This document shows positions 4,021-58,487 of a stretch of 64,000 bases of DNA, one piece after another. How positions within the stretch are numbered: position 1 is the first letter of the stretch; each line of letters begins with the position of its first letter. A model generated the notes under the pieces. The model worked only from the letters and a program-made list of their open reading frames with translations, had not been told where the DNA came from and did no database searches. Both the position numbers and the translations under genes were made by a program. This DNA is from Geopsychrobacteraceae bacterium. GTDB taxonomy: Bacteria > Desulfobacterota > Desulfuromonadia > Desulfuromonadales > Geopsychrobacteraceae. The stretch covers positions 256,001 to 320,000 of the forward strand of contig OY759353.1 in the NCBI GenBank assembly GCA_963662315.1. The letters are read 5' to 3'.

Positions 4021-4890
4021 ATGATCATTCCTGATATTATTGCGACTCAGAATCCTTTTATCTCCATGGAATTTTTCCCGCCACGGAGCGCCGATCACCT
4101 GACAACTTTTTCTGCAGTTGTCTCATGTCTGTGCCAGCAGAAACCCGATTTCTTTACGGTGACTTTTGGTGCCGGCGGCTCGACGAAGGTTGGGACTTAC
4201 CAGACTGTAAAGCAGTTGCTGACCGATACTGACGTTCCGACGGTTGCGCACCTTGCTGGAGCAGGTCTTGGTCCGGAAGATCTGTGTCAGATTCTAGATC
4301 AGTATCAGGACCTGGGGGTGAAAAATATATTCGTGGTCCGTGGCGATGCTGCTAAAGATGGTTCTTTTGCTTTTCATCCGCAAGGCTTTCCCTATGCTAG
4401 CGATCTGATCGCCTTTATCCGTGAACGCTACGATTTTACTATCGGATGTGCCGGTTATCCTGAGGGGCATGTTTCGGCCCCGAGTTACGAGCGTGATATA
4501 GAGTATCTGCAGCAAAAGGTTGAAAGCGGCGGGGATTACATCCTGACCCAATATTTTCATGACAATGAGTTCTTTTTCCGGTTTGTTGAGCAGTGCCGGA
4601 GCTGCGGGATAACGGTTCCCATTATTCCCGGGATTATGCCGGTCTATTCTTTGGAGTTAACACAAAGGCTATCAGTTATGTGTGGAGCTTCTATTCCCAA
4701 GGAGCTTCAACGTGGCTTGCGTGACGCTGACGCGGACACCGCGCAGCAGTTTGGAATTGCTTTTGCCCTCAAGCAGTGTAAAGAGTTGCTGCAATATGGT
4801 GTTGCCGGACTTCATTTTTATACGATGAATCGAAGCACTGCTATCAGCGCTATCATGGCGGCGTTGCGTCAGGATGGTTTAATTCTTTAA
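4021..4890 (+). CDS. metF: 5,10-methylenetetrahydrofolate reductase
   Basis: SMEFFPP, VTFGAGGS, VRGD, AGYPEGH, ILTQYF, IIPGIMP, LHFYTMN. Confidence 0.92.
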   Translation: MIIPDIIATQNPFISMEFFPPRSADHLTTFSAVVSCLCQQKPDFFTVTFGAGGSTKVGTYQTVKQLLTDTDVPTVAHLAGAGLGPEDLCQILDQYQDLGVKNIFVVRGDAAKDGSFAFHPQGFPYASDLIAFIRERYDFTIGCAGYPEGHVSAPSYERDIEYLQQKVESGGDYILTQYFHDNEFFFRFVEQCRSCGITVPIIPGIMPVYSLELTQRLSVMCGASIPKELQRGLRDADADTAQQFGIAFALKQCKELLQYGVAGLHFYTMNRSTAISAIMAALRQDGLIL

Positions 4891-4983
4891 TATTTGAAAT
4901 CTTTATTGTTGTTCTTTGAGTATTCAAAGGATGTGTTACGATTAATTATTATTTAATTGATTTTGAATATTGGGAGTTGATGA

Positions 4984-5832
4984 ATGGAATTGCTGAAAAA
5001 CTTCCTCCTCATTATGGGCATTCTGCTGCTGTCTGCTTCTCTATGGCCAATTCGCAAAACAATCGCTTCAATTCCTCATGGTCGCATCCGCAATTTATGG
5101 CGCGCTTTAATCTACCTGATCTGTTTTTTTATTATCGGTTATTCTTATTATTATGTCTGTTACGGTGGTATCTATCGCCACTTCGAAGATCTCCTGGTTC
5201 CGGTTGTTTTCTTTTGGGGAGCCGTCTTCGTTTTCCTGGTGTGTTTGCTCTCGCTGCAGACGGCTAAAAATTTTCGTCGAATTTTTATTCTGGAGCAGGA
5301 AAACTCCACCGATTCTCTGACCGGAGTTTATAATCGTCGTTATTTTGACCGCCGACTTCATGAAGAATTCAGTCGTTCTAAGCGCTATAACGAGCCATTC
5401 TCAATGATTATGATCGATGTTGATCATTTTAAACGCATAAATGATCATTGGGGGCACCAGATTGGGGACCTGGTCCTTCGACGTTTCGCGGAACGCATCA
5501 AAATCAGTCTGCGGGAATCTGATGTCCTGTGCCGCTATGGTGGCGAAGAGCTGGGTTTGTTACTACCGCACACTCCTCTTGATGCCGCTCTGGCACTGGC
5601 TGAAAAACTGCGGTGCAAAGTTGCTGCCAGCGAATTGTTAACCACGGCTGAAGCTGAAGGGCTAGGGGCCATTCAGGTGACGGTCAGTCTTGGTGTTGCC
5701 AGTTTGCTGCCTGATATCTCTTCACCCGCGCAGCTTCTCGGTGTGGCCGATAAGGCCCTGTATTTTGCTAAACAGGCAGGGCGTAATTGTATCAAATCGT
5801 GTAAAGAATTGATTGATGGCGGGAACTGCTAG
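4984..5832 (+). CDS. Membrane-anchored (about 3 TM) diguanylate cyclase
   Basis: Hydrophobic N-terminus; DSLTG, DVDHFKRINDHWGHQIGD, RESD I-site, GGEEL. Confidence 0.88.
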   Translation: MELLKNFLLIMGILLLSASLWPIRKTIASIPHGRIRNLWRALIYLICFFIIGYSYYYVCYGGIYRHFEDLLVPVVFFWGAVFVFLVCLLSLQTAKNFRRIFILEQENSTDSLTGVYNRRYFDRRLHEEFSRSKRYNEPFSMIMIDVDHFKRINDHWGHQIGDLVLRRFAERIKISLRESDVLCRYGGEELGLLLPHTPLDAALALAEKLRCKVAASELLTTAEAEGLGAIQVTVSLGVASLLPDISSPAQLLGVADKALYFAKQAGRNCIKSCKELIDGGNC

Positions 5833-18074: not shown

Positions 18075-18161
18075 ATATTTCTGTGAGCGTTGGACGACTG
18101 ATGGCTTCTGAAAAGAGGGGCTTGATTGTTTGCGATAGGTACTTAAATTAAAAAAGCCTGG

Positions 18162-18678
18162 GTCGCCGGGTCCCGGCCCGGCAGCCCACGCTGCTGTCGC
18201 AGCTAATGGGCAAGAGCGCTAGTTGAGAGACAGGCTGCCGTGGGTCTATCGGTTTTCGTTACTAAACCCATCATCAATAAATAATACGGTTCTGGCCATC
18301 AGGCGGGGGTGAGCCGTCAGGCCGGCTGGTAAATTGCTGGTTGTCTCTTGGTGCCCAACGACGCCCGAACACGGACATATTAAAGAGGGCTTTTTGTGCT
18401 TACTATTTTTAGCCTGATTGTGAAAAATAGTAAGGCGCAGTGTGGGGGCGCGACCCCGTGACTTTGATATGGTTTTGACCGTTTCGTTCCAATCAATAAA
18501 GTCTTAAGGTCGCCGGGTCCCGGCCCGGCAGCCGGGTTCATTTTTCCCAGCGATGGAAAAACGAACCAAAAAGATCTTTGAAGGTCAAACACACTGACGA
18601 TAGGTGTATGGGACTACGTTTCAACGTTACAGGGTGAAATTAACCGGCAGCCCACGCTGCTGACGCAGCTAACGGGCA
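18162..18678 (+). repeat. ~455-bp structured repeat, array A (one internally deleted unit + a 5' partial unit)
   Basis: Same blocks as the 28.6-31 kb array; the first unit is deleted between the two ccggcagcc words. Confidence 0.93.
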
Positions 18679-18749
18679 GGTTTTATTAGGGGAGAATTGT
18701 GACTTTTGGCTTTCTGTTGCTGCGTGTTACTTAAGTCTTTAAGTATTCA

Positions 18750-19235
18750 CTATTTAATTTTCAGTTCATCCCGTAGCGCTCTTCTTGCCGCTTTATCAAC
18801 CAAGCGAAAGATCTGATCGGGCAAAGTCCGTTGCGCCGCTGGGAGGTGTCCGCACCGTTTACAGAACTCCAGCTGATAGTTATCCAGTTGCTCGAAAAAT
18901 TCCCGATAGAGATCAGCATTATTCAGCGGTCGCCCCAGGCGTGAGCAAAAATGTTTTTCCTCTAGACTCCGGCGGCGTTGTGGCAGTTCGCAGATGGTTT
19001 GGGAATCGCAGTGGATGGTCAGTTGGGCTCCAGGGGGAACGAATTCCTGTAGTGCCCAGAGCAGAGTCTGCATTTCCAGTCGGGCCGCAGTGGTTTGCGC
19101 AAAAGGTTTGACGCGAATCTGACTGATCATGTCTTCTAGAGATGTCTGGTCCGAACTGATCAGCAGGCAGGCGCCGTAGCCGATACCGGTTGTGGGGTCG
19201 GCGCTACCGTCACAGAAGAGTTGCAGTTCTGCCAT
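18750..19235 (-). CDS. Ribonuclease HI family protein
   Basis: FCDGS, ARLEMQ, HCDSQ, NNADLY, GH, VDKAAR catalytic pattern. Confidence 0.8.
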   Translation of the reverse strand: MAELQLFCDGSADPTTGIGYGACLLISSDQTSLEDMISQIRVKPFAQTTAARLEMQTLLWALQEFVPPGAQLTIHCDSQTICELPQRRRSLEEKHFCSRLGRPLNNADLYREFFEQLDNYQLEFCKRCGHLPAAQRTLPDQIFRLVDKAARRALRDELKIK

Positions 19236-19613: not shown

Positions 19614-20250
19614 GACCGCCGGGTCCCGGCCCTGCAGCCGGGTTCATTTTTCCCAGCGATGGAAAAACGAACCAAAAAGATCTTTGAAGGTCAAACACAC
19701 TGACGATAGGTGTATGGGACTACGTTTCAACGTTACAGGGTGAAATTAACCGGCAGCCCACGCTGCTTCGCAGCTAACGGGCAAGAGTGCTTGTTGATAG
19801 GTATACTGTCCTGGGTCTATCGGTTTTCGTTATTAACCCATCATCAATAAATAATGCGGTTCTGGCCATCAGGCGCGATTTGAGCCGTCAGGCCGGCTGG
19901 TTAATTGCTGGTTGTCTCTTTGTGTCCAACGACGCCCGAACACGGACATATAAAAAGGGCTTTTTGTGCTTACTATTTTTAGCCTGATTGTGAAAAATAG
20001 TAAGGCACAGTGTGGGGGCGCAACCCCACGACTTTGATATGATTTTGACTGTTTCATTTCAATCAATAAAGTCTTAAGACCGCCGGGTCCCGGCCCGGCA
20101 GCCGGGTTCATTTTTCCCAGCGATGGAAAAACGAACCAAAAAGATCTTGTAAGGTCAAGGTAACTGACGATAGCTGTGTTGGACTACGTTTGAACATTGC
20201 AGGGTGCAACTAACTGGCAGCCCACGCTGCTATCGCAGCTAACGGGCAAA
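19614..20250 (+). repeat. ~455-bp structured repeat, array B (1 full + 1 partial unit)
   Basis: Conserved blocks ccgggtcccggccc...ggaaaaacgaaccaaaaagatc...gcagctaacgggca...aaaaatagtaagg. Confidence 0.93.
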
Positions 20251-20346
20251 GGGCTGTAGAGGAGAATTATTGTGCTGCTGGCTTTACGGGTTGTTGCTAC
20301 TGAATGCTTAATAGTATTAACTAGTTAAAGAGATGTTTTAAACGGA

Positions 20347-20944: not shown

Positions 20945-22735
20945 TCATTCCTGCTTTGCATTGTTTTGAAATACCGCACCTTCAATGCGGTTTCTGCCAT
21001 TGTTTTTGGCTTTGTAAAGCAGAGCGTCACATGCATTGAGCAGCTCTTCGGCTTGAACTTCCTGTGCACCGGTCAGGGTCAATACGCCGATACTCACAGT
21101 CACATGATCTGAAACTTTCGAGCCTTTATGGGGAAAGGCCAGGGTTTCAATCCCGCACCGAACCTGTTCTGCCAGTGCCAGGGCATCTTGATGCTCAGTT
21201 GCCGGCAGGATACAGACAAATTCTTCACCACCATAGCGGGCGACCGTGTCCGTTGGGCGCTTAAGTGTTTTTGCAAAGACCAGCGCTGTGGCCCGAAGAC
21301 AGTCATCTCCGTGTAAATGGCCATAGATGTCATTGAATTGTTTAAAGTAATCTATGTCCACCAAAAACAGCGAGAGCGGCGCCCCGGACCGGTTTTGACG
21401 TTTAATTTCACTGGTGAAGGTTTCATCAAAAAGGCGCCGGTTCACCAGACCGGTCAGCGAATCTTTGCTGGCCAATTTGGCCAGTTCCCGGTTCATGGTT
21501 TCGATTTCGCGCGTTGACGTGTCAATCAGGCGGTGCAGGGCGCGCATGGTACGGAACTGCCGTGATTCTTCCAATTTGGGATCATACTTTTCTGAGTCTG
21601 ATGCCGCTTCAGGATCTCCTTCGGAGAGGGACAAAACGGTCATCGTCTGGCTGAAGAAATACGGCTTTCCGGATTTATGACTGAAATATTCGCCGTAGCA
21701 GAAGAACCCGCAGGCCGGTGCAAGGTCTTCCAGCGATGACAGTTCCACCGTAATATCTGCGCCCAGGATCCACTTCCGGGAGACACAGGAGTAGATGAAA
21801 ATCGATTGCGGATTGTAGGCGCGCACCTCTTCATTGATCAGCTGAGAGCCAATCGCCAGCAGTCCGGCGTGGCAGAAGCCGAAGCGTAACTGTTCCCCGG
21901 GATAGAAGTCGTGGATATAATGAAACGATCCATCCTCGTTGACGCCCGTAGCATGGATCGCCATGGGAATACCGTCGCGTTCGATAATCAGGGGAAAATC
22001 GGCAGCGGACAAAGGCAGGCCGTCAGCAACTTCCTGCCCCAGATAGTGGGCGTAAATGTCATAGGGGGACATGTCGTCAATGGAATAGACGACCGGTCCC
22101 TGGGCTTCGGTGATGGTCAGTTTTTTGCCGATGGGAACCCAGCTCAGGTTGTAGGCGTTATCCGCTCTGAGTGCCTTGCCGGATAATGATGCTGTTGCAA
22201 CCCCGTGTTCGGTCAGTCCGTGCTGAGTGAACACAAAAGTTATCGCGCCTTTACCGTTATCTCCAGCCTGTCCGCCGGCAATGATGGCACTACCGCTGCG
22301 GGAATGGATGGCATCCAGCAGTGGTTCGCCATTGATTGTGTGCTTGTTCTTGAGCCCGCAGCCGAGCACGATAAGCGCTTTGGTATCAGGCTGGCACAGC
22401 GTATCTCCGATGTCCTGCCCGGCGCGCACCAGATCATCATTTTGGGTGACAAGGTGGGAGCAGACACGCGAGTGTTCAAACAGCGAAATGCTGATCAGAA
22501 TCTGTCCGTCCAGAGAGAGGGCAGCGATAATCTCACCAGCGGTGCTGGTTCCGATCAGGGGTACGCCGGGAAAACATTGGGTGATGTGTGAGACAAGCTC
22601 AAGAACGACAGCTTGATCCTGTTCGCCACTGAAGATCTGAATCAGAACCTGGTCCGGGGGGTAAGAAAGCACCTGATCCTTCACGGCGCTCAGATCGGCA
22701 TAATCGTTATAGACGATATTGATAGTTTTGATCAT
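20945..22735 (-). CDS. FIST_N-FIST_C (NosP-like) sensor diguanylate cyclase
   Basis: GTSTAGEI, GGQAGDN, WVPIGK, YSCVSR, GFFCYGE, SQT; RPTD I-site, GGEEF. Confidence 0.87.
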   Translation of the reverse strand: MIKTINIVYNDYADLSAVKDQVLSYPPDQVLIQIFSGEQDQAVVLELVSHITQCFPGVPLIGTSTAGEIIAALSLDGQILISISLFEHSRVCSHLVTQNDDLVRAGQDIGDTLCQPDTKALIVLGCGLKNKHTINGEPLLDAIHSRSGSAIIAGGQAGDNGKGAITFVFTQHGLTEHGVATASLSGKALRADNAYNLSWVPIGKKLTITEAQGPVVYSIDDMSPYDIYAHYLGQEVADGLPLSAADFPLIIERDGIPMAIHATGVNEDGSFHYIHDFYPGEQLRFGFCHAGLLAIGSQLINEEVRAYNPQSIFIYSCVSRKWILGADITVELSSLEDLAPACGFFCYGEYFSHKSGKPYFFSQTMTVLSLSEGDPEAASDSEKYDPKLEESRQFRTMRALHRLIDTSTREIETMNRELAKLASKDSLTGLVNRRLFDETFTSEIKRQNRSGAPLSLFLVDIDYFKQFNDIYGHLHGDDCLRATALVFAKTLKRPTDTVARYGGEEFVCILPATEHQDALALAEQVRCGIETLAFPHKGSKVSDHVTVSIGVLTLTGAQEVQAEELLNACDALLYKAKNNGRNRIEGAVFQNNAKQE

Positions 22736-27470: not shown

Positions 27471-28526
27471 GTGATGGGAACAAAGTTCAATTCTGAAGAG
27501 AACTCACAGGATACTTTTCCAGACGCATATGAGCAGATGAAGCAAATGCTGCTTGAGCAGGAAGAAACGATCAAAGCTCTTGAACAGGCGGTTGGCGATG
27601 CCGGCAACCAGCAGTTGACAGCTGAATTTGAAAGTCTGGAAATGCATCAGATCCTTTCAGCAACGGCTGATCCGATCTGGGCCGTTCGTGATGATGGTAT
27701 TGTTATCCGCGCCAATCAGGCCATGCTGGATTTGCTGGGCAAAGATGAGTTCGAGGTTATCGGACAGCGCTGCTCAGATCTGATCAATTTTAGCTGTTGT
27801 CAAGGGGAGGATTGTCCCCTTAAAAACATTAAAAAACGGCAAAGGCATGAAATCGAGCTGTTTTTTAATGGTGAATACTACAGTCTGCTCTCTTCTCCTC
27901 TGATCACCATTGTGGGTACCGAAGCTGTCGTTGGTCATTTCAGAAATATCACCTTTCGTAAACAGACTGAGCAGCAGCTTGAAATGTTGAATAAAAAACT
28001 CGCTGCCGCAGCAAATATTGACGGGCTGACCCAGATTGCCAATCGGCGCTCTTTTAATGAAACTTTTGAGCGCGAATGGTTGCGCCATAAGCGTAATAAA
28101 ATGACTCTGTCGCTGGTCCTGATCGATATCGACTTCTTTAAAAAATATAATGATTACTATGGTCATTCCTCTGGGGATGATTGCCTTATCAAGGTAGCTT
28201 CCGCCTTACAGTCTGCCGTGAAACGGCCAGTCGATCTGGCCGCAAGGTATGGCGGTGAGGAATTTGTTGTGCTGCTGCCGGAAACGCCGATAGAAGGGGC
28301 CATTTGTGTCGCCGAGCGTATTGCAGAGGCTATCGCCGCGCTGCGTATTGAGCATCATGAATCAGAGGTTTTTGACCATGTGACGGTCAGCCAGGGGGCG
28401 GCTTCAATTGATCCTGATGGCGAGCTGAAAGCAGTCAGGCTGATTGAGATGGCTGATGAGGCTCTGTATGCGGCAAAAGAGCGCGGGCGGAATTGTTATG
28501 TGGATTATCATACGCTTAACCCTTGA
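27471..28526 (+). CDS. PAS-domain diguanylate cyclase
   Basis: PAS segment with a Cys cluster (RCSDLINFSCCQGEDCP); DGLT, DIDFFKKYND, RPVD, GGEEF. Confidence 0.88.
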   Translation: MMGTKFNSEENSQDTFPDAYEQMKQMLLEQEETIKALEQAVGDAGNQQLTAEFESLEMHQILSATADPIWAVRDDGIVIRANQAMLDLLGKDEFEVIGQRCSDLINFSCCQGEDCPLKNIKKRQRHEIELFFNGEYYSLLSSPLITIVGTEAVVGHFRNITFRKQTEQQLEMLNKKLAAAANIDGLTQIANRRSFNETFEREWLRHKRNKMTLSLVLIDIDFFKKYNDYYGHSSGDDCLIKVASALQSAVKRPVDLAARYGGEEFVVLLPETPIEGAICVAERIAEAIAALRIEHHESEVFDHVTVSQGAASIDPDGELKAVRLIEMADEALYAAKERGRNCYVDYHTLNP

Positions 28527-28581
28527 GTTTTTGATTTCTCCTGTGTGCGATTGCGCTCATCACATCTTCTCTTCTTAGTTT

Positions 28582-28625
28582 AAAAAAACAATACTGCCGG
28601 GTCCTTGCCCGGCAGTATTGTTTTT
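28582..28625. terminator. Bidirectional rho-independent terminator-like hairpin
   Basis: aaaaaaacaatactgccggg-tccttg-cccggcagtattgtttttt. Confidence 0.75.
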
Positions 28626-28627
28626 CA

Positions 28628-30991
28628 CTACTAAAACCCATCATCCATCAATAATGCGGTTCTGGCCATCAGGCGGGTTTGAGCCGTCAGGCCGGTCAGT
28701 CAATTGCTGGTTGCCTCTTGACGAACAACGACGCCCGAACACGGACATATGAAAAGGGCTTTTTGTGCTTACTATTTTTAGCCTGATTGTGAAAAATAGT
28801 AAGGCGCAGTGCGTGGGCGCGACCCCGTGACTTTGCTTGTCTCATTCCATCAATAAAGTCTTAAAACCACCGGGTCCCGGCCCGGCAGCCGGGTTCATTT
28901 TTCCCAGCGATGGAAAAACGAACCAAAAAGATCTTGCAAGGTCAAGGTAACTGACGATAGTCGTGTGGGACTACGTTTCAACGTTGCGAGGTGGAATGAA
29001 CCGGAAGCCCACGCTGCTGTCGCAGCTAACGGGCAAAAGGCGCTAGTTGATTGGCGGACTGCTGTGGGTCTATCGATTTTCGCTCCTAAACCCATCATCA
29101 ATAAATAATACGGTTCTGGCCATCAGGCGGGGGTGAGCCGTCAGGCCGGTCAGTCAATTTCTGGCTGTTTCTTGAAAAACAACGACGCCCGAACACGGAC
29201 ATATTAAAGAGGGCTTTTTGTGCTTACTATTTTTAGCCTGATTGTGAAAAATAGTAAGGCGCAGTGCGGGGGCGCAACACCGCGACTTTGCTTGTTTCTT
29301 TCAAATCATAAAAGACAAAGTCGCCGGGTCCCGGCCCGGCAGCCGGGTTCATTTTTCCCAGCGATGGAAAAACGAACCAAAAAGATCTTGTAAGGTCAAG
29401 GTAACTGACGATAGCTGTGTTGGGCTACGTTTGAACGTTGCAGGATGCAACTAACTGGCAGCCCACGCTGCTTCGCAGCTAACGGGCAAAAGGCGTTAGC
29501 TGATTGGCGGACTGCTGTGGGTCTATCGATTTTCGCTCCTAAACCCATCATCTATCAATAATGCGGTTCTGGCCATCAGGCGGGTTTGAGCCGTCAGGCC
29601 GGCTGGTCAATTTCTGGTTGCTTCTTGACGCACAACGACGCCCGAACACGGACATATTAAAGAGGGCTTTTTGTGCTTACTATTTTTAGCTTGATTGTGA
29701 AAAATAGTAAGGCGCAGTGCGGGGGCGCAACACCGCGACTTTGCATGTTTCTTTCAAATCATAAAAGACAAAGTCGCCGGGTCCCGGCCCGGCAGCCGGG
29801 TTCATTTTTCCCAGCGATGGAAAAACGAACCAAAAAGATCTTGTAAGGTCAAGTACACTGACGATAGCTGTGTTGGACTACGTTTGAACGTTGCAGAATG
29901 TACAATTAAGCGGCAGCCCACGCTGCTGTCGCAGCTAATGGGCAAGGGCGTTAGCTGGAAGACGAAGCATAGAGTTTCTATCGGTTTTCGCTCCTAAACC
30001 CATCATCAATAAATAATACGGTTCTGGCCATCAGGCGTGATCTGAGCCGTCAGGCCGGCTGTTCAATTTCTGGCTGTTTCTTGAAAAACAACGACGCCCG
30101 AACACGGACATATTAAAGAGGGCTTTTTGTGCTTACTATTTTTAGCTTGATTGTGAAAAATAGTAAGGCGCAGTACGGGGGCGCGACCCCGTGACTTTGC
30201 TTGTCTCATTCCATCAATAAAGTTTTAAGACCGCCGGGTCCCGGCCCGGCAGCCGGGTTCATTTTTCCCAGCGATGGAAAAACGAACCAAAAAGATCTTG
30301 TAAGGTCAAGGTAACTGACGATAGCTGTGTTGGACTACGTTTGAACATTGCAGGATGCAATTAAGCGGCAGCCCACGCTGCTGTCGCAGCTAACGGGCAA
30401 AAGGCGCTAGTTGATTGGCGGACTGCTGTGGGTCTATCGATTTTCGCTCCTAAACCCATCATCAATAAATAATACGGTTCTGGCCATCAGGCGTGATCTG
30501 AGCCGTCAGGCCGGCTGGTCAATTTCTGGTTGCTTCTTGACGCACAACGACGCCCGAACACGGACATATTAAAGAGGGCTTTTTGTGCTTACTATTTTTA
30601 GCTTGATTGTGAAAAATAGTAAGGCGCAGTGCGGGGGCGCGACCCCGTGACTTTGTTTGTCTCATTCCATCAATAAAGTCTTAAGACCGCCGGGTCCCGG
30701 CCCGGCAGCCGGGTTCATTTTTCCCAGCGATGGAAAAACGAACCAAAAAGATCTTTGAAGGTCAAGGTAACTGACGATAACAGTGAAGGGCTACGTTTGA
30801 ACGTTGCGAGGTGGAATGAACCGGCAGCCCACGCTGCTTCGCAGCTAACGGGCAAGGACGTTAGTTGGAAGACGAAGTATAGAGTTTCTATCGATTTTCG
30901 CTCCTAAACCCACCATCAATAAATAATACGGTCCTGGCCATCAGGCGGGTTTGAGCCGTCAGGCCGGCCATTCAATTGCTGGTTGCCTCTT
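28628..30991 (+). repeat. ~455-bp structured repeat, main tandem array C (about 5.2 units)
   Basis: Anchor ccgggtcccggcccggcagcc at 28870, 29324, 29777, 30234, 30690 (periods 454, 453, 457, 456); no credible ORF across 2.4 kb. Confidence 0.97.
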
Positions 30992-31119
30992 AAATCACAA
31001 CAAAACCTAAGCGTGACCGCTTCCGGCAGGAAAAATTAAATGCTGAAAATATTGATAAACAAAGGTACTTTAATTGAGTATTCAATAATCAGCTGTGAAA
31101 ACCAAAAAGGAGTAGCATA

Positions 31120-31803
31120 TTGGCTCTGGACACACACAAGTATTATGCTGCAATTACCGGAGATGTGATCAACTCTTCTGCATTTAATGATAGCAATCGC
31201 GATCTGCTGCATGATTCCATCCAGAAAGTAGGTGCAGAGGTTTACAAGTTTTTCCCAGGGTTTCAGGTCGGGGATCTCTCTATCTTTCGGGGGGACAGTA
31301 TTCAATTTTTGCTTTCTGACCCAGTTGTCTCATTGCGTGTCGCACTGTTTTTCCGTGCCGCCTTTAAAGCGATCCTTCCGAAGCAGAAGGTTGATATGCG
31401 ATTGTCCATCGGGATAGGCACTGTCAGTTTTCTTCCCTCAACTGATCAAGGAGGTGCCGATGGGGAAGCGTACAGATTGTCAGGCGCCTCTTTGGATAAG
31501 CTTTCTGCAAAAGAGACCATGGCCATAAATGTTTCCAGTGAATGGGGAACAGATCTGCAGCGCAGGGCATTTCAGACAATCGCTGTTCTGCTTGGTTTTC
31601 AGGCCGGTGGCTGGACCAGTAAACAGGCGCTGGCAGTTAAATGGGGGATTTTGAATAAAACCCAAGAAGAAATCAGCCGACTCTGGCCTGAAACAGTGTC
31701 CAGGCAGGCCATTGCCAAAAACCTGGATGCGGCCGGCTTCTTTGCCGTTGAGCAGGGTTTGAGGTTTTTTGAGGAGAATAAATTTAACACTTGGCAACCT
31801 TGA
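31120..31803 (+). CDS. SatD family protein (cyclase-like palm domain + C-terminal HTH)
   Basis: AITGDVINSS, FRGDSIQ, RLSIGIG, DGEAYRLSG, WTSKQ...TQEEI...SRQAIAK; AGGAG RBS before TTG. Confidence 0.75.
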   Translation: MALDTHKYYAAITGDVINSSAFNDSNRDLLHDSIQKVGAEVYKFFPGFQVGDLSIFRGDSIQFLLSDPVVSLRVALFFRAAFKAILPKQKVDMRLSIGIGTVSFLPSTDQGGADGEAYRLSGASLDKLSAKETMAINVSSEWGTDLQRRAFQTIAVLLGFQAGGWTSKQALAVKWGILNKTQEEISRLWPETVSRQAIAKNLDAAGFFAVEQGLRFFEENKFNTWQP

Positions 31804-32592: not shown

Positions 32593-32607
32593 TTTATTCC
32601 AATCGCT

Positions 32608-32635
32608 AAGACCGACGGGTCCCGGCCCGCCAGCC
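32608..32635 (+). repeat. Isolated left-end hairpin fragment of the 455-bp repeat
   Basis: aagaccgacgggtcccggcccgccagcc. Confidence 0.7.
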
Positions 32636-32798
32636 TGTCGCAAATTGGAATCTAATTTTTTTATTAAAACTCTTGAATTCATGAAATATGAAGGATATTT
32701 TTACATATTGATTTTTATATGACATAAATCTGGAGGGGAAATATGTTCTGTATCAAGCATCACTTCAGATCTTCCCATCCTCAAACATCCGGGCCGTT

Positions 32799-35289: not shown

Positions 35290-36318
35290 ATGGAAAGTAT
35301 TCACTACATTGGCCTGGACGTCCACAAGAAAACCATCGCCTATTGCATCAAGAACATGAGCGGCAAAATGATTGATCAAGGGATCGTTGGAACTGAGCGC
35401 AGGGCTCTTCGGACGTGGCTATCGGCCTTGCCTGGCCCCTGGATGGGGGCTATGGAAGCGACACTGTTCACTGGCTGGATTTACGATTTTCTCAAACCAC
35501 ACGCGATTGAGCTGAAGGTTGCTCATCCGGAAATGCTCAAGGCGATTACTGCGGCAAAGAAGAAAAATGACCGGGCAGATGCTGAAAAGCTGGCGGATCT
35601 TCTACGAGTCAATCTTCTGCCCGAATGCACCATGATGTCCGAAGAGCTCCGGGAATTACGGCGTATTCTTCGTTATCGGAATATGGTGGTCCGCACGGCA
35701 GTGCAAATGAAAAATAAAATGGCCGGATTAATGATGGAAGTCGGCGCGACCTACGACAAAAAACGGTTGTATGGGAGCAAATACTTCAATCAACTGATGG
35801 AGCGGGTAGGCGATGTGCCCGATTCGGTCAAAGAGCTGTTACAACTGAGCCGCAGTAATCTAGAGCTGTTTACCGCCATCCAGAAGAAATTGGTTCGGAC
35901 TCTCCGGGAAAATGAACTGATTCGGCAGAGAGTTGAGCTTTTGATGAGCATTGCCGGGGTTGGAGAAATTATGGCTTTGACCTGGGTGTTGGAGATCGGT
36001 GATCCAACCCGCTTTCCCTCCAGTCGGGAAGCCATCAGCTATTGCGGACTCTGCAGTGCACAACGGGAATCGGCCGGGAAAGATCAACGAGGGCCACTCT
36101 CCAAAAAACGCAACAAGCACCTGCAGACCATGCTCATTGAAGCCGCTAAGCTAGCCCCACGATGGAATATTCAACTGGCGGAATTGCATGAAAAAGAGTT
36201 GACCAAAGGCAATCGCAACCGAGCCACTTTAGCTGTTGCACGCAAGCTGGTTGAATATCTGTTGGCCGTTGATCGACGTGGTACAGCTTTTGAGGAGAGA
36301 CAATCTCAGGTCGCCTGA
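35290..36318 (+). CDS. IS110 family DEDD transposase/recombinase
   Basis: IGLDVHK, AMEAT, KKNDRADA, SIAGVG, YCGL...ESAG, AVARKL. Confidence 0.95.
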   Translation: MESIHYIGLDVHKKTIAYCIKNMSGKMIDQGIVGTERRALRTWLSALPGPWMGAMEATLFTGWIYDFLKPHAIELKVAHPEMLKAITAAKKKNDRADAEKLADLLRVNLLPECTMMSEELRELRRILRYRNMVVRTAVQMKNKMAGLMMEVGATYDKKRLYGSKYFNQLMERVGDVPDSVKELLQLSRSNLELFTAIQKKLVRTLRENELIRQRVELLMSIAGVGEIMALTWVLEIGDPTRFPSSREAISYCGLCSAQRESAGKDQRGPLSKKRNKHLQTMLIEAAKLAPRWNIQLAELHEKELTKGNRNRATLAVARKLVEYLLAVDRRGTAFEERQSQVA

Positions 36319-36895: not shown

Positions 36896-38455
36896 ATGAG
36901 AATACCTATTATTGATTTGTTTGCAGGGCCGGGAGGATTAGGTGAGGGATTCAGCCAAGTTGGTTGGCGTGAGGGAAATCCGTTTTTTAGGATTGGGCTT
37001 TCTGTTGAAAAAGAAGTTTTTGCACACAGGACTTTAAGGTTGCGGAGCTTTATCCGTCAATTTCCTTATAACGAAATTCCGGAAGAATATTTTCAATTTC
37101 TGAGAGAAGGTAAACAGCCCGAAGAATTGTTTTTAATAGATAAATATAAGGAGCAGGCCGATTCTGCAGAAAATGAAGCTTGGCACGAGACTTTACGAGA
37201 TGATGCTGATTTTAATAAAAAACTGGACGAGCGTATTAGTCTTGCTCTTGATGGAAATAAGAATTGGGTATTGATTGGAGGCCCTCCTTGCCAAGCATAC
37301 TCACTGGCTGGACGGTCACGCAATAAGGGAAAGAAAGATTATATTCCTGAAAAAGATCATCGTCATTTTCTCTATCAGGAATATTTACGAATTATTGGTG
37401 AGCACAAGCCGGCAGTGTTTGTCATGGAAAATGTTAAAGGGATTCTTACCTCTAAGGTAGGCGGGAGCCCTATTTTTAAACAGATCCTTAATGATCTAAG
37501 AAGTCCAATGAACGGTAATGGCTGTAAGTATAGAATATTTTCATTGGTTGCTCCTGCCGAAGAAGTCAATGAAAACGGTGATCCTCTTTTTGATGATCGT
37601 GACTTTATTATCAGGGCTGAAGAGTATGGAATTCCGCAGGCGAGGCATAGAGTTATTTTACTTGGCGTAAGAGAAGATATTGTTGAAAAAGGGATTATTC
37701 CAGAAATTTTACAAAAAAGAAAACAGGTAAGTCTTTATAAAATTCTTACTCTTCCTCCCTTAAGAAGTGGTATTTCCAGGGGGAACTTTACCGGGGAAGA
37801 ATGGTTAAGGGCAGTAAAAAGTTTTCGAATTAAAGAACTGAGAAACGAGATCGTAAAGATCTCTGACCACAGAACAATGGATCGGCTTTGGGACGCTTTG
37901 AAGGAACTCAGCATTCCTGCAAGTGATATGGGGGGGAACTTCGTGACGAAATCGCCGACTCGGATTGCAGACATATTTTTGGAAGGTTGGTATGAAGATT
38001 CTAGAATTGGCGGTGTTTATAATCATTTAGCACGGACGCACATGGTCTCCGATCTTCATAGATATATATATGCAGCCAGTTTTGCCAAATCCAGAGGGAT
38101 ATCTCCACGGATGGCTGAATTTCCGGAGGATCTTAAGCCGGATCACAAAAATAGGGACACTGGTGATTTTAATGACCGCTTCAGGGTTCAGGTGACAGGG
38201 AAGCCTGCAACCACAGTAACCTGTCATATTTCAAAAGACGGTCATTATTTTATTCACCCCGATCCATCTCAATGCAGGAGTTTGACTGTCAGGGAGGCTG
38301 CTCGTATTCAGACTTTCCCGGATAACTATTTTTTCTGTGGAAACAAGACAGAACAATACATACAGGTTGGAAATGCTGTTCCGCCACTTCTGGCCAATAA
38401 AATTGCGCTGATTGTTAAAAAAGTGCTTGTTGAGGCGTTTGGTAACAATGGCTGA
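36896..38455 (+). CDS. dcm: DNA (cytosine-5)-methyltransferase
   Basis: DLFAGPGG, GGPPCQ, MENV, PQARHR, RSLTVREAARIQTFPD, QVGNAVPP. Confidence 0.95.
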   Translation: MRIPIIDLFAGPGGLGEGFSQVGWREGNPFFRIGLSVEKEVFAHRTLRLRSFIRQFPYNEIPEEYFQFLREGKQPEELFLIDKYKEQADSAENEAWHETLRDDADFNKKLDERISLALDGNKNWVLIGGPPCQAYSLAGRSRNKGKKDYIPEKDHRHFLYQEYLRIIGEHKPAVFVMENVKGILTSKVGGSPIFKQILNDLRSPMNGNGCKYRIFSLVAPAEEVNENGDPLFDDRDFIIRAEEYGIPQARHRVILLGVREDIVEKGIIPEILQKRKQVSLYKILTLPPLRSGISRGNFTGEEWLRAVKSFRIKELRNEIVKISDHRTMDRLWDALKELSIPASDMGGNFVTKSPTRIADIFLEGWYEDSRIGGVYNHLARTHMVSDLHRYIYAASFAKSRGISPRMAEFPEDLKPDHKNRDTGDFNDRFRVQVTGKPATTVTCHISKDGHYFIHPDPSQCRSLTVREAARIQTFPDNYFFCGNKTEQYIQVGNAVPPLLANKIALIVKKVLVEAFGNNG

Positions 38456-52988: not shown

Positions 52989-53471
52989 ATGAAAATATCT
53001 ATAATTCTAATACTTCTCAGTCTGTTAACCGCTCCGGCATTCGCCGAGGACCTGAACATCACCATCAAACACGACCAGTCAGGTGTCGCGGACGAAATCA
53101 TCAAACTGAAGGATTTTGATTTTGAGCTTCAGCAGCGGGAACGGGAGCGGATGAAGCGCTGGAATATTGAAGATTCCAATGATGCCGTAAAAGTGGGGGA
53201 TGGTTATTTCAATGAAGGTGAAATTGACGATGCGCTGTTCTTTTATCAAATGGCGATCAAAATTGACCGGACCAATGCTGATGCACACAAAAAGTATCTT
53301 GCGGCCAGAAAAGCAGAGAAGGAAACCTCTTCTCCCCGGTACCACCGGGCGATGGAATATGACCGCAAGGGGATGAAGGATAGGGCGATTGATGAGTTGG
53401 TCCAGGAGCTTAAGGAGCATCCGGATAATGAGCAGGCGCGGATTAAGTTGAATGAGATTGAGAGTAAATAG
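52989..53471 (+). CDS. Secreted TPR-repeat protein
   Basis: Signal peptide ending AFA; two TPR-like segments (GDGYF..G.IDDA..FYQMAIKID; AIDEL...HPDNEQAR). Confidence 0.75.
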   Translation: MKISIILILLSLLTAPAFAEDLNITIKHDQSGVADEIIKLKDFDFELQQRERERMKRWNIEDSNDAVKVGDGYFNEGEIDDALFFYQMAIKIDRTNADAHKKYLAARKAEKETSSPRYHRAMEYDRKGMKDRAIDELVQELKEHPDNEQARIKLNEIESK

Positions 53472-54601
53472 TGCGGGGGGCACAGCCCTGTGACTTTGCT
53501 CGTTTCATTTAAATTATAAAAGACAAAGTCGCCGGGTCCCGGCCCGGCAGCCGGGTTCATTTTTCCCAGCGATGGAAAAACGAACCAAAAAGATCTTTGA
53601 AGGTCAAGGTAACTGACGATAACAGTGAAGGGCTACGGTTGAACGTTGCAGGATGCAATTAAGCGGCAGCCCACGCTGCTTCGCAGCTAACGGGCAAGGA
53701 CGTTAGTTGGAAGACGAAGTATAGAGTTTCTATCGATTTTCGCTACTAAACCCATCATCAATAAATAATGCGGTTCTGGCCATCAGGCGGGTTTGAGCCG
53801 TCAGGCCGGTCAGTCAAAAGCTGGCAGCTTTTTGGTGCCCAACGACGCCCGAACGCGGACATATTAAAGAGGGCTTTTTGTGCTTACTATTTTTAGCCTG
53901 ATTGTGAAAAATAGTAAGGCGCAGTGCGGGGGCGCAACACCGCGACTTTGCTTGTTTCTTTCAAATCATAAAAGACAAGGTCGCCGGGTCCCGGCCCGGC
54001 AGCCGGGTTCATTTTTCCCAGCGATGGAAAAACGAACCAAAAAGATCTTTGAAGGTCAAGGACACTGACGATAGCTGTGTTGGGCTAGGTTTGAACGTTG
54101 CCGGGTGAATTTAACCGGCAGCCCACGCTGCTTCGCAGCTAACGGGCAAAAGGCGTTAGTTGGAAGACGAAGTATAGAGTTTCTATCGATTTTCGCTACT
54201 AAACCCATCATCTATCAATAATGCGGTTCTGGCCATTAGGCGGGTTTGAGCCGTCAGGCCGGCTGGTCAATTTCTGGCTGTTTCTTGAAAAACAACGACG
54301 CCCGAACACGGACATATTAAAGAGGGCTTTTTGTGCTTACTATTTTTAGCCTGATTGTGAAAAATAGTAAGGCGCAGTGCGGGGGCGCAACACCGCGACT
54401 TTGCTTGTTTCTTTCAAATCATAAAAGACAAAGTCGCCGGGTCCCGGCCCGGCAGCCGGGTTCATTTTTCCCAGCGATGGAAAAACGAACCAAAAAGATC
54501 TTTGAAGGTCAAGGACACTGACGATAGCTGTGTTGGGCTACGTTTGAACGTTGCGAGGTGGAATGAACCGGCAGCCCACGCTGCTTTGCAGCTAACGGGC
54601 A
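53470..54601 (+). repeat. ~455-bp structured repeat, array D (about 2.5 units)
   Basis: Anchors at 53532, 53984, 54437 (periods 452, 453). Confidence 0.96.
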
Positions 54602-54669
54602 AGAGCACTTATTGTGAGTTTGTCCTCGCAACTCCGTGACTTTGGTATTGACTGTTGTGATATAAACGC

Positions 54670-56540: not shown

Positions 56541-58487
56541 ATGGCCGATAAAGACCTATCAACAATCGATTGGTTTGAAATGGAAAGTGATTTTTTCAAA
56601 CAAACCATTGAAGCATCAAAAGAAGCCATTTTTTGGCTGAAGGATTCAGGACAGTTCGCCTATGTCAATAAAAGCGCCTGCGACTCCCTTAATTATTCCA
56701 GAGAAGAATTACTTTCTAAGTATTTATGGGATATTGATCCTGATTATAGCGAGGAAACATTTCAATCGTTATGGGGAAAATTGGCCATTAACGAAACAGT
56801 TCAACATGAAACAAGGCATCAGCGTAAAGATGGAACAACCTTTCCGGTTGAGGTCTATTCCACCGTTCTTTCCTATAAAGGCAAGATATATCACACCTCT
56901 TTTGTCAGGAACCTTAGCGAGCGTAAGGCTGTCGAGGCGACTTTAAGGGAAAGTGAAAATCGTTTCCGGGCTCTGTTGGATACGATTCCGGACTATATCT
57001 GGCTCAAGGATGGTGATGGGGTTTATCTTTCGTGTAACGCCAATTTTGAAAAACTCTATGGAGCTAAAGATATCATCGGGAAAACCGATTATGATTTTGT
57101 CGATAAGGATTTAGCAGACTTTTTCCGGCAGAACGACAAGATTGCCATGCAGGCCAGCAAACCGATGACCAACGAAGAATGGCTCACTGTTGCTGTGACT
57201 GGTGAAAAAATTCTAATGCTGACAACCAAGGTGCCTATGTATGCTCCAGATGGGAGTATTATCGGCGTGTTAGGAGTCGGTCGCGATATCACAGCGTTAA
57301 AAAAGGCCGAAGAAGAAAAGAGCGAATTGGAAAACCAGCTTTACCAGACGCGCAAGATCGAATCCATCGGGCAGCTTGCCGGTGGTATCGCGCATGATTT
57401 TAATAATATGCTTGGTGTCATTCTTGGCCACTGCGAGTTGGTGCGGCTAAAAGGTCAGGGCGATAATCCCTTTGATTTTCATATACAGGAAATACAAAAA
57501 GCGGCCCGACATTCAGCGGACTTAACCAAGCAATTATTAACCTTTGCACGCAAACAGACTATTTCTCCGCAGTCGATTGATTTAAATGAAACGGTGCCAA
57601 GCATGCTGAAAATGCTGCAGCGGCTTATTGGTGAAGAAATAAAATTGTTTTGGTCGCCAGCACCTCAGCTTTGGCCGATCTATGTCGATCCGTCTCAGGT
57701 TGACCAGATCCTGGCCAACTTATGTGTCAATGCTCGCGATGCGATCAATGGGAGCGGCAATATTTATATAGAAACTGAAAATATCAGCTTTCAGGAAGTT
57801 CCTGATAAATTTAAAGCCTTCGATGTGATGCCGGGACACTATGTCAAAATAGCTGTCACTGATAATGGCTGTGGCATGACGAAAGAGATTCTGGCTCATA
57901 TATTTGAACCCTTCTATACCACCAAGAGCGTTGGCTCTGGAACCGGATTGGGCCTCGCAACGGTATACGGGGCCGTGAAACAGAATGACGGCTTTATCGA
58001 TGTGCACAGTGAACCAGGGGCAGGGACAACATTTGACATTTTCTTCCCTCGTAATACGGCGGTCAAGGTTTCCGTGCCAAATAACGAAGGAAGTCATTTT
58101 TTTCATGGCAATGAAACGATTCTGCTCGTGGAAGATGAAGAAATGCTCCTCAATATGGAGTCTGCTATCCTCGCGCAGTGCGGCTACCAGGTTTTAGCTG
58201 CAGGTAATGCTGAAAGAGCTGTTGCGATCGCTCAGACTCATTCCGGGCCAATTCACATTTTAGTCACCGATGTTGTCATGCCGGAAATGAATGGCTGGGA
58301 ATTAAGTAAAAAGTTGGAAGCAATCAGGCCTGAGATGAAAGTCCTTTTTCTCTCAGGCTATTCGGCGGATATTCTGTCAAATAAAAGAAATGTCAGTCAG
58401 GGGATCAATATTCTTAAAAAACCAATCTCCATGACCTCTTTAACGTTAAAAATTAGAAATATACTCAATGACCTAGAGAACCCTTAA
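56541..58487 (+). CDS. PAS-PAS hybrid sensor histidine kinase / receiver
   Basis: AHDFNN H-box, NLCVNARDA, DNGCGM, EPFYTTK, GTGLGL; receiver LLVEDE...TDVVMP. Confidence 0.93.
   Translation: MADKDLSTIDWFEMESDFFKQTIEASKEAIFWLKDSGQFAYVNKSACDSLNYSREELLSKYLWDIDPDYSEETFQSLWGKLAINETVQHETRHQRKDGTTFPVEVYSTVLSYKGKIYHTSFVRNLSERKAVEATLRESENRFRALLDTIPDYIWLKDGDGVYLSCNANFEKLYGAKDIIGKTDYDFVDKDLADFFRQNDKIAMQASKPMTNEEWLTVAVTGEKILMLTTKVPMYAPDGSIIGVLGVGRDITALKKAEEEKSELENQLYQTRKIESIGQLAGGIAHDFNNMLGVILGHCELVRLKGQGDNPFDFHIQEIQKAARHSADLTKQLLTFARKQTISPQSIDLNETVPSMLKMLQRLIGEEIKLFWSPAPQLWPIYVDPSQVDQILANLCVNARDAINGSGNIYIETENISFQEVPDKFKAFDVMPGHYVKIAVTDNGCGMTKEILAHIFEPFYTTKSVGSGTGLGLATVYGAVKQNDGFIDVHSEPGAGTTFDIFFPRNTAVKVSVPNNEGSHFFHGNETILLVEDEEMLLNMESAILAQCGYQVLAAGNAERAVAIAQTHSGPIHILVTDVVMPEMNGWELSKKLEAIRPEMKVLFLSGYSADILSNKRNVSQGINILKKPISMTSLTLKIRNILNDLENP

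Follow-up and report, generated by a model that had tools for sequence, protein, structure and literature searches.

An order-wide interspersed repeat of REP-like organisation: inverted doublets of a large, folded module in Desulfuromonadales

Described repeats and how the new element compares

Among the extragenic repeats of bacteria, repetitive extragenic palindromic (REP) sequences have mRNA-stabilising and terminator roles; the enterobacterial repetitive intergenic consensus (ERIC) and YPAL elements of Enterobacteria are imperfect palindromes of 127–170 bp that form one long arm-against-arm hairpin, have no known transposase, lie inserted in transcribed intergenic regions and are considered to affect neighbouring mRNAs as RNA structures; and the BOX elements of pneumococcus are built as boxA-(boxB)n-boxC from modules of 45–60 bp, with no inverted doublet and no pseudoknots. 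The subject of this report is a ~455-bp repeat unit that forms tandem arrays in a 64,000-nt stretch of DNA (the window), which spans positions 256001–320000 of the 4.71-Mb single contig of a Geopsychrobacteraceae bacterium (OY759353.1; genome G000 below). Our analysis showed that this unit is a tail-to-tail (convergent) doublet of one ~190–200-nt module, that the module has a multi-helix fold conserved on its own strand through compensatory changes, and that it is a high-copy interspersed repeat restricted, among the genomes sampled, to the order to which the window genome belongs (Desulfuromonadales; ‘the order’ in all counts). The element is REP-like in its organisation and new in its size, in its multi-helix, pseudoknotted fold and in having no flanking transposase, which sets it apart from the literature searched.

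The doublet shares with ERIC/YPAL a palindrome that runs through the whole element but differs from them in the local folding of its arms, in its length of ~390 bp and in its occurrence in another order. It shares with BOX a modular build in which distinct end pieces enclose a varying number of internal units in tandem, here a head hairpin, n units and a tail. Its terminal inverted repeats, lack of coding capacity, multiple copies and insertion polymorphism are likewise those of miniature inverted-repeat transposable elements (MITEs). However, in contrast to MITEs, no target-site duplication was seen at the one resolved site, conserved single modules with only one of the two ends exist as well, selection on structure acts on the interior, and no parent insertion sequence (IS) with these ends was found in G000, where a search by the unit end motifs with up to 2 mismatches was noisy and returned no IS-like partner.

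The closest likeness is to the REP sequences, the doublets of these that form hairpins (REPINs) and the bacterial interspersed mosaic elements (BIMEs), which occur with REP-associated tyrosine transposases (RAYTs) in Pseudomonas and Enterobacteria. Passages of PMC3116915 describe these as high-copy extragenic palindromic repeats behind genes, in which an inverted doublet is common and is probably the replicative form, which also build tandem arrays of alternating orientation, and which are non-autonomous and vary in presence among related genomes; the element described here resembles them in each of these respects. The predominance of doublets that the same passages report for REPINs, together with tandem REP arrays, was also found in our material (32 doublets against 16 solo modules), whereas the other marks of a REPIN-RAYT system, a short tagged palindrome and a RAYT gene flanked by it, were absent. 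According to passages of PMC3733652, a REP unit is a palindrome of 20–40 nt with a conserved GTAG or CGTC end tag. Our module, by comparison, has several helices and two pseudoknot-type pairings where a REP has one hairpin, its 5′ end is CGGTTCTGSCC with no GTAG/CGTC tag, its arrays have a period of ~455 bp against ~184 bp in P. fluorescens, and it flanks no RAYT gene among the 10 Y1 open reading frames (ORFs) delimited in G000.

Some RAYT genes lie in elements with long terminal inverted repeats, termed TIRYT in passages of PMC3733652, and the same is true of four identical RAYT-like genes near our units. These belong to four near-identical ~790-bp elements in which a 226-aa RAYT-like Y1 gene stands between perfect 24-bp terminal inverted repeats (L023:1–800 and G000 loci 3420208, 3856026 and 3859672), and which have been inserted at different points within or next to repeat units and a remnant of an intron. 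Their 24-bp repeats are unrelated to the module, and the ~790-bp element is a neighbour of the arrays.

Searches of Rfam 15 yielded one tRNA and nothing else in the whole window at gathering thresholds, only chance miRNA-type matches of ≤20 bits in 28400–31200 at E up to 10, and nothing relevant at six related loci at E up to 1; a preliminary description of this DNA, made from the sequence alone, had likewise assigned the unit to no named family. The invariant CTGACGA of the element resembles the hammerhead box CUGANGA; a hammerhead was considered and rejected, with no GAAA box behind the motif in most copies and no ribozyme family matching at E up to 10. Group II intron models had no match in the window, and at other loci they matched only DNA beside the units; BLAST with the intron likewise left the units unmatched. 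The unit was unmatched in a plasmid collection, and no published description of such an element was found in the full-text literature searched, which includes few papers of subscription journals. The passages seen of a 2026 preprint on noncoding clusters contain no such element.

Anatomy and fold of the module

Weak reverse-strand matches at unit positions ~136–318 gave a hint of dyad symmetry, and one shared plan became apparent when the left half of the unit (module L, + strand) was aligned with the reverse complement of the right half (module R, - strand). Each module has the 5′ end CGGTTCTG(G/C)CC and a stem, P1 (GGCC/GGCC or GCCC/GGGC, lengthened to 6 bp by a C-G pair and a conserved T.G wobble), which encloses a hairpin, P2; these are followed by a conserved GTYAnTTnCTG stretch and then by a variable middle part, in which module R carries an invariant TCGTCAG. 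The 3′ domain consists, in this order, of a T-run, a 10–13-bp A/T-rich hairpin (P4), a 6-bp G/C hairpin (P5) and a T-rich tract, the last of which points to the unit centre in each module. The loops of P4 and P5 each pair with a strand just upstream, that of P4 with a stretch upstream of the T-run (PK1) and that of P5 with the strand between P4 and P5 (P5a), and the strand order of both PK1/P4 and P5a/P5 is that of an H-type pseudoknot. Owing to this convergent arrangement of the modules, the doublet is bounded by terminal inverted repeats (CGGTTCTGSCC ... GGSCAGAACCG), and its centre holds two terminator-like ends that face each other.

The strand on which each half folds was evident from folding energies, the left-arm 5′ hairpin being more stable on the + strand in 72 of 75 copies and the right-arm P5/P4 region on the - strand in 71 of 75. 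Cores detected by model R1 in the window alternated between strands (9 on + and 11 on -), and all window copies were doublets or pieces of doublets. Directly 5′ of module L, most copies outside the window carry a mini-hairpin, AAAATGCC-N4-GGCATTTT (e.g. G000:4217372–4217412), which covaries to ATTGC/GCAAT and ATGGC/GCCAT and which forms part of the inserted DNA in the empty-site comparison given below.

Conservation of the fold was assessed for helices P4, P5, P5a and PK1 in 27 diverse copies less than 80% alike, in a MAFFT alignment blind to structure. Of 730 cells, 91.4% pair as against 69.0% in shuffles, with none of 500 shuffles reaching the native value, and pairing fell to 43–54% when the partner was slid by 1–3 columns. 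Changes on both sides were observed at 23 of the 28 pairs, the covariation score was 0.526 (0.149 in shuffles), and the proportion of paired cells was 98.8% for P5, 94.1% for P4, 91.6% for P5a and 76.1% for PK1. Non-Watson-Crick cells were more often G.U (29) than A.C (14). Structure was also counted in 108 non-redundant modules from seven genomes. In these, position 2 of P1 is C-G in 58 modules and G-C in 45, a T.G wobble is present in P1 of 66, and all P5 positions show several pair types each; a P2 stem of at least 5 bp forms in 98 modules (34.5% of shuffles) through 40 distinct stems, and a P5a duplex of at least 4 bp forms in 103 (53% with swapped partners), with matched variants that include TCGTC/GACGA, TCGCC/GGCGA and TCGGC/GCCGA. 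RNAalifold, applied to an HMM alignment of whole units, recovered fragments of structure only, because stems of unequal length were misaligned.

These data bear on the preliminary description in several ways. The hairpins that it listed are all present, as P4, P2/P1 and P5 of the two modules, and the covarying 3′ hairpin from which it argued that structure is conserved is P5 of module L, where compensatory change was confirmed and from which it extends much further. A single co-oriented structured RNA of ~455 nt, as it envisaged, is not what is conserved, because the halves fold on opposite strands and the R1 cores alternate; its statement that all units lie on the same strand is correct for the order of the halves and incorrect for the fold, the unit being a convergent doublet. 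The long-range pair ctgacg/cgtcag that it proposed finds no support, as CTGACGA is invariant while the supposed partner varies.

The window holds four arrays and a remnant (Table 1). Tandem Repeats Finder returned a period of 456, 5.2 copies and 89% matches for the main array (28622–30991) and a period of 453 with 2.5 copies for 53470–54602, and BLAST of one unit against the window gave 14 pieces, every one on the + strand, the units of the main array being 89–93% identical to the reference unit. Together these bear out the tandem arrays first placed at 18162, 19614, 28628 and 53470; a fragment first placed at 32608 is real but small. Array 2 starts 71 nt past the stop codon of a co-oriented UDG-family gene. 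The linker within the window arrays occurs in two sequence variants, in place of which other subfamilies have ~37 nt with a small covarying hairpin (ATGCC-N4-GGCAT). The tail behind array 2 was found again 3′ of array 3 (20255–20330), and a conserved tail of ~100 nt stands behind 6 of 16 array ends examined in G000; it begins with a Shine-Dalgarno-like GGAGAA and a short ORF of variable frame, and might be a leader peptide, a promoter or an end of the element. In three contig-only DNA runs the flanks stop at the array edges, and the repeat has a k-mer depth ~10–25 times that of the flanks. As the preliminary description held, there is no credible coding content: the 2.4-kb main array has only one ORF of at least 60 aa, and no transposase or conserved ORF was found inside the units. 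Neither the Rfam scan of the window nor BLAST with the intron found group II intron pieces in the window arrays.

Table 1. Positions of the repeat arrays, their parts and adjoining features in the window
Feature	Position	Strand	Remarks
Main array	28622..31001	+	Five units of 453–458 bp, 89–100% identity, and the ~108-nt start of a sixth
Array 2	18145..18678	+	Two short unit pieces, then one unit
Array 3	19617..20254	+	Right half of a unit (module R), then one full unit
Array 4	53470..54605	+	2.5 units
Remnant of module R 3′ domain (P5/P5a region)	32605..32653	-	49 nt; model R1, 20.5 bits, E 0.0017
Example of module L (unit 2)	29111..29300	+	P1/P2 ~29111–29149; 3′ domain (PK1, P4, P5a, P5) 29208–29292; 83 bits
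Example of module R (unit 2)	29300..29495	-	P1/P2 near 29495–29455; 3′ domain 29392–29314, toward the centre; 70.7 bits
Linker between two units	29496..29563		~70 nt
Tail after terminal unit	18679..18770	+	Conserved stretches ..CTACTTACTGCTTAA..TATTCACTATTT..
Terminator hairpin of the GGDEF gene (27471–28526), older than the array	28582..28625	+	Directly abuts the first unit
Recurrent small ORF	28641–28748, 29098–29202, 29548–29655, 30031–30111, 30487–30567	-	One per main-array unit

About 4 kb downstream of the main array lie an IS110-family transposase gene (35290–36315) and then a C-5 cytosine DNA methylase gene (36896–38452). Genes for PAS/FIST-GGDEF proteins and hybrid histidine kinases are found around the arrays (20948–22735, 27471–28523 and 56541–58484), and two of the arrays stand directly behind or before GGDEF genes, a relation in which nothing beyond proximity was seen.

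Distribution, gene context and gain of copies

A profile built from nine window units gave 103 matches in G000, of which 90, in 51 clusters, were kept after the removal of reverse-strand shadows. GC skew places the origin of this chromosome near 3.05 Mb and the terminus near 0.76 Mb; a replication-strand rule for the orientation of copies was rejected, since copies are mostly on the + strand on both replichores and orientation therefore does not follow replication. In a DNA search of 41 related genomes, matches were found in 27, including all six congeners of the window genome (G001–G006, with G001 the nearest relative), for which between 2 and at least 49 matches are listed per genome; beyond the genus, only the central part of the unit matched. 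A covariance model of the 81-nt 3′ domain (81 positions) was then run on 151 genomes sampled across the order and matched 138 of these, in 26 of 27 families and 60 of 64 genera, with scores of up to 90 bits and, with counts limited to the best 30 cores of each genome, at least 30 matches in many. In a second sample, drawn from the whole class, the model matched 56 of the 61 genomes that belong to the order and 0 of the 60 that belong to other orders, a zero that also serves as a specificity control for the model. A count of copies genome-wide and in relatives, as the preliminary description had suggested, shows that the repeat family is not special to the window locus or to its genome and is interspersed across the whole order. 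In two other families, same-strand cores lie ~506–590 nt apart (G029:C7:136057–137654 and 193812–194900; G099:C1:752551–753220), a spacing suggestive of tandem doublet arrays of independent origin in other parts of the order.

The nearest upstream gene is co-oriented in 31 of the 51 clusters of G000, usually at a distance of 3–96 nt. Outside the genus, context was read at 40 loci around best-scoring hits in six genomes of other genera, with ORFs taken as simple longest-ORF calls; most of these loci come from two congeneric genomes and some are orthologous (e.g. L081 and L089). The 80 cores at these loci form 32 convergent doublets and 16 solos. By a hand count of rows, 19 of the doublets lie between convergent, 11 between tandem and 2 between divergent genes, where 8:16:8 would be expected with equal orientations, and the upstream ORF is co-oriented for 49 of the 64 doublet modules, mostly 121–220 nt from the core. 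This pattern, as far as sequence can speak to it, fits elements that would be read as the 3′ ends of neighbouring genes and would not be tolerated in promoter regions.

Comparison with the congeners revealed sites with and without the element. A convergent-gene locus with a solo unit (position 1814239 of G000) is occupied in G000 by a doublet together with its head and tail and in G001 by a single module with the same left boundary; in G002, G004, G005 and G006 only 51–62 nt are present. The element sits between a stop codon and an older terminator hairpin, and neither a target-site duplication nor an A-rich tail was visible at this site, the one resolved to the base. A second locus is filled in G000, G001 and G002 and ~360 nt shorter in G004–G006, and a third has one unit in G001 and three in tandem in G000, while at position 2366178 the relatives carry ~1.5–1.7 kb of other DNA. 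New copies of the element are thus acquired behind a stop codon and ahead of the terminator of the same gene, and copy number changes in place.

Solo copies of module R also accompany a set of polymorphic genes in G000. At least 8 copies of a gene for a 349–397-aa protein share their N-terminus and have variable C-termini, one of them an EndoU nuclease domain (L023:1426–2475 (-) and 4662–5798 (-); L022; G000:349208–350401 and others). Small variable ORFs follow each gene copy, as in polymorphic toxin/immunity cassettes, each gene starts 166–175 nt from a solo module R, and one copy lies beside phage-tail-like (sheath/tube) genes.

Readings of the element and their significance

The reading that we favour, at a probability of roughly 55%, is that of a new, very large REP/REPIN-like interspersed element that would supply folded, terminator-like 3′ ends. 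On this reading, which is drawn from sequence comparison, the modules would be transcribed as the 3′ ends of neighbouring genes, and the fold with its T-rich tract would act as a terminator and/or as a protective, possibly exonuclease-resistant, 3′-end structure; a lenient terminator scan of the array region returned 23 sites against 3.8 expected. The doublet would be a bidirectional stop between convergent genes, which would explain why doublets appear to be tolerated chiefly in that setting and to be avoided where genes diverge. The family would spread as a non-autonomous, REPIN-like selfish element whose fold may persist because copying, harmlessness or both depend on it, and in the window genus unequal recombination or slippage may have multiplied the doublet and its linker head-to-tail into the window arrays. 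Several observations weigh against this reading. The T tract after the 6-bp P5 is interrupted (GACTTTGCTTGTTTC), and these are therefore not textbook intrinsic terminators, in which a run of U stands right behind a G/C-rich hairpin; it is not obvious what use an array of five units would have as a terminator; and the conserved folds are equally readable as single-stranded DNA. PK1 is the weakest of the helices and in a cruder test formed a duplex of at least 5 bp in 50% of natives against 34–36% of controls; the column-based count supports it at 76% paired cells. The 19:11:2 split between gene orientations overstates the number of independent events, since it was taken from best-scoring hits in mostly two congeneric genomes with some orthologous loci. 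Finally, neither a target-site duplication nor a cognate enzyme was found, so that the word ‘mobile’ rests on presence and absence at two loci.

A bolder reading, which we hold only tentatively, takes the module as a self-standing functional RNA of a new class, a doubly pseudoknotted 3′-end cassette acquired by insertion across the order that would serve as a ‘mobile terminator’, an exonuclease-blocking cap or a platform for an RNA-binding protein, with the fold doubling as a copying signal; were this true, structure, host use and mobility would be coupled, and tandem arrays would be amplified stocks of cassettes or multi-site protein sponges. The main rival to the favoured reading, somewhat less probable still, is that the fold matters and is read only as single-stranded DNA, by an HUH/Y1 (RAYT-like) transposase that recognises, cuts and pastes the inverted doublets of what would be a giant REPIN, the RNA structure being incidental. 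Besides the excess of doublets and the tandem arrays, it accounts for modules that fold on opposite strands, as expected of REP pairs, and candidate enzymes are at hand: G000 has 11 Y1_Tnp genes over the Pfam cut-off, 8 of them within 3 kb of units, and two of their products reach 76 bits with NCBIfam REP_Tyr_transpos (cut-off 80), as against 16–18 with IS200. However, of the 10 Y1 ORFs that could be delimited among these 11 genes, none is bracketed by the module end motif within 700 nt, and four of the genes sit in the ~790-bp element described above, with its unrelated terminal repeats and various insertion places. Y1 genes occur in 37 of 41 related genomes, which is in keeping with this rival and at the same time makes the search for a co-occurring enzyme, proposed in the preliminary description, uninformative with regard to Y1_Tnp (for the intron maturase it was negative), and the numbers of Y1 genes are uncoupled from those of the units (2 Y1 genes and 49 unit matches in G003, 11 and 4 in G004, among the matches listed). 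The module is also 5–10 times longer than a REP and has no GTAG/CGTC tag at its terminus, pseudoknot-type helices, of which it has two, and conserved G.U wobbles are features more typical of RNA, and its orientation is independent of the replichores.

That the modules are instead convergent pairs of small RNA (sRNA) genes, each driven by a promoter, ended by a terminator and kept for the host as a trans-acting or protein-binding RNA whose dosage the arrays would raise, we regard as unlikely. The elaborate conserved fold with its pseudoknots and compensatory changes, the terminator-like end of each module and the conservation of the family across the order would all suit such genes, but the array region shows no conserved promoter (a sigma-70 scan found 3 sites against 2.8 expected, only one of them before a module), the sequence 5′ of the module varies from one subfamily to another and consists, in solos, of a gene end, congeners range in copy number from 2 to at least 49 matches, sites are empty in relatives, and modules start ~10–100 nt past co-oriented stop codons, which fits read-through better than separate genes. 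The alternative offered in the preliminary description, an array of noncoding RNAs or a non-autonomous element, is supported in its second part, with empty sites and one against three units as evidence of gain and amplification, and not in its first: nothing favours the unit-length RNAs for which it proposed a test, no conserved promoter having been found and the modules ending at the unit centre. A retroelement comparable to short interspersed nuclear elements (SINEs), in which the module RNA is copied and inserted by the reverse transcriptase of a group II intron, is very improbable. It would draw on at least 11 unit clusters of G000 (hand count) inside truncated group IIC-type introns of the opposite strand, where units replace the intron middle, as is seen from their being flanked by an intron 3′ piece and 5′ piece, with junctions at microhomologies of up to 9 nt (GAACCGCAA, CGGCTGCCG) as in template switching or illegitimate recombination. 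Yet the unit-rich genomes G001, G002 and G003 have no match to intron maturase (GIIM) and the window arrays have no intron DNA, so the intron is not the engine of spread; the chimeras hold multi-module stretches, antisense modules included, and not single module RNAs; and the single site resolved to the base shows neither A-rich tails nor target duplications. The intron-unit chimeras are products of illegitimate recombination or template switching. Scarcely any probability attaches to two further proposals. One would make the unit an ORF-less integron cassette that is or contains an attC site moved by the integrase, and G000 does have such an integrase (TIGR02249, 480.7 bits, cut-off 265) with a co-oriented cassette array that holds units, as do other cassette-like runs; but the attC sites there are ordinary ones of 60–100 nt unrelated to the unit, the units sit in intron remnants inserted into attC sites, the unit ends GTTCTG...CAGAAC have the opposite polarity to the AAC...GTT layout of an attC core (attC sites being imperfect palindromes of 57–141 nt), and most of the 51 clusters lie beside ordinary genes. 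The other would see type I toxin-antitoxin genes, or genes for small proteins, repeated in tandem in the manner of the E. coli long direct repeats, whose Ldr/Rdl loci are tandem repeats of ~500 bp. An ATG-started ORF of 26–35 aa does occur antisense to module L in all five main-array units; it is, however, frameshifted in two of the five, its peptide is polar and not hydrophobic, copies of other subfamilies that were examined have no ATG at the same place, and substitutions follow base-pairing and not codons. The small ORF is most likely a by-product of the conserved sequence.

The integron of G000 lies outside the window (G000:C1:2835992–2861300; L017 and L020), with its integrase on the - strand and an array of small ORFs of ~24 kb on the + strand, and an insertion of the IS110 family has invaded the array, as have several copies of group II introns. 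A full-length intron of group IIC type is followed directly by a second, internally deleted copy (L020:3939–5750, -). In the truncated introns at the other loci, of which there are at least 11, the middle is replaced by 1–2.6 repeat units, and the junction types recur, at intron positions 138 or 304 on one side and 1411, 1502 or 1646 on the other. Domains I, V and VI might still be present in copies that keep 1–304 and 1411–1862.

REPs and other interspersed repeats shape the ends of bacterial transcripts and the rearrangement of genomes, and how they spread and what use they have is debated. The family described here occurs in some nine-tenths of the genomes sampled from its order, often in dozens of copies, and its annotation would account for many assembly breaks and ‘empty’ stretches between genes in such genomes. 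It offers a clean system in which to ask whether a selfish repeat owes its retention to the service that its RNA fold renders to neighbouring genes, and, where no flanking transposase is evident, by which enzyme inverted doublets are copied.

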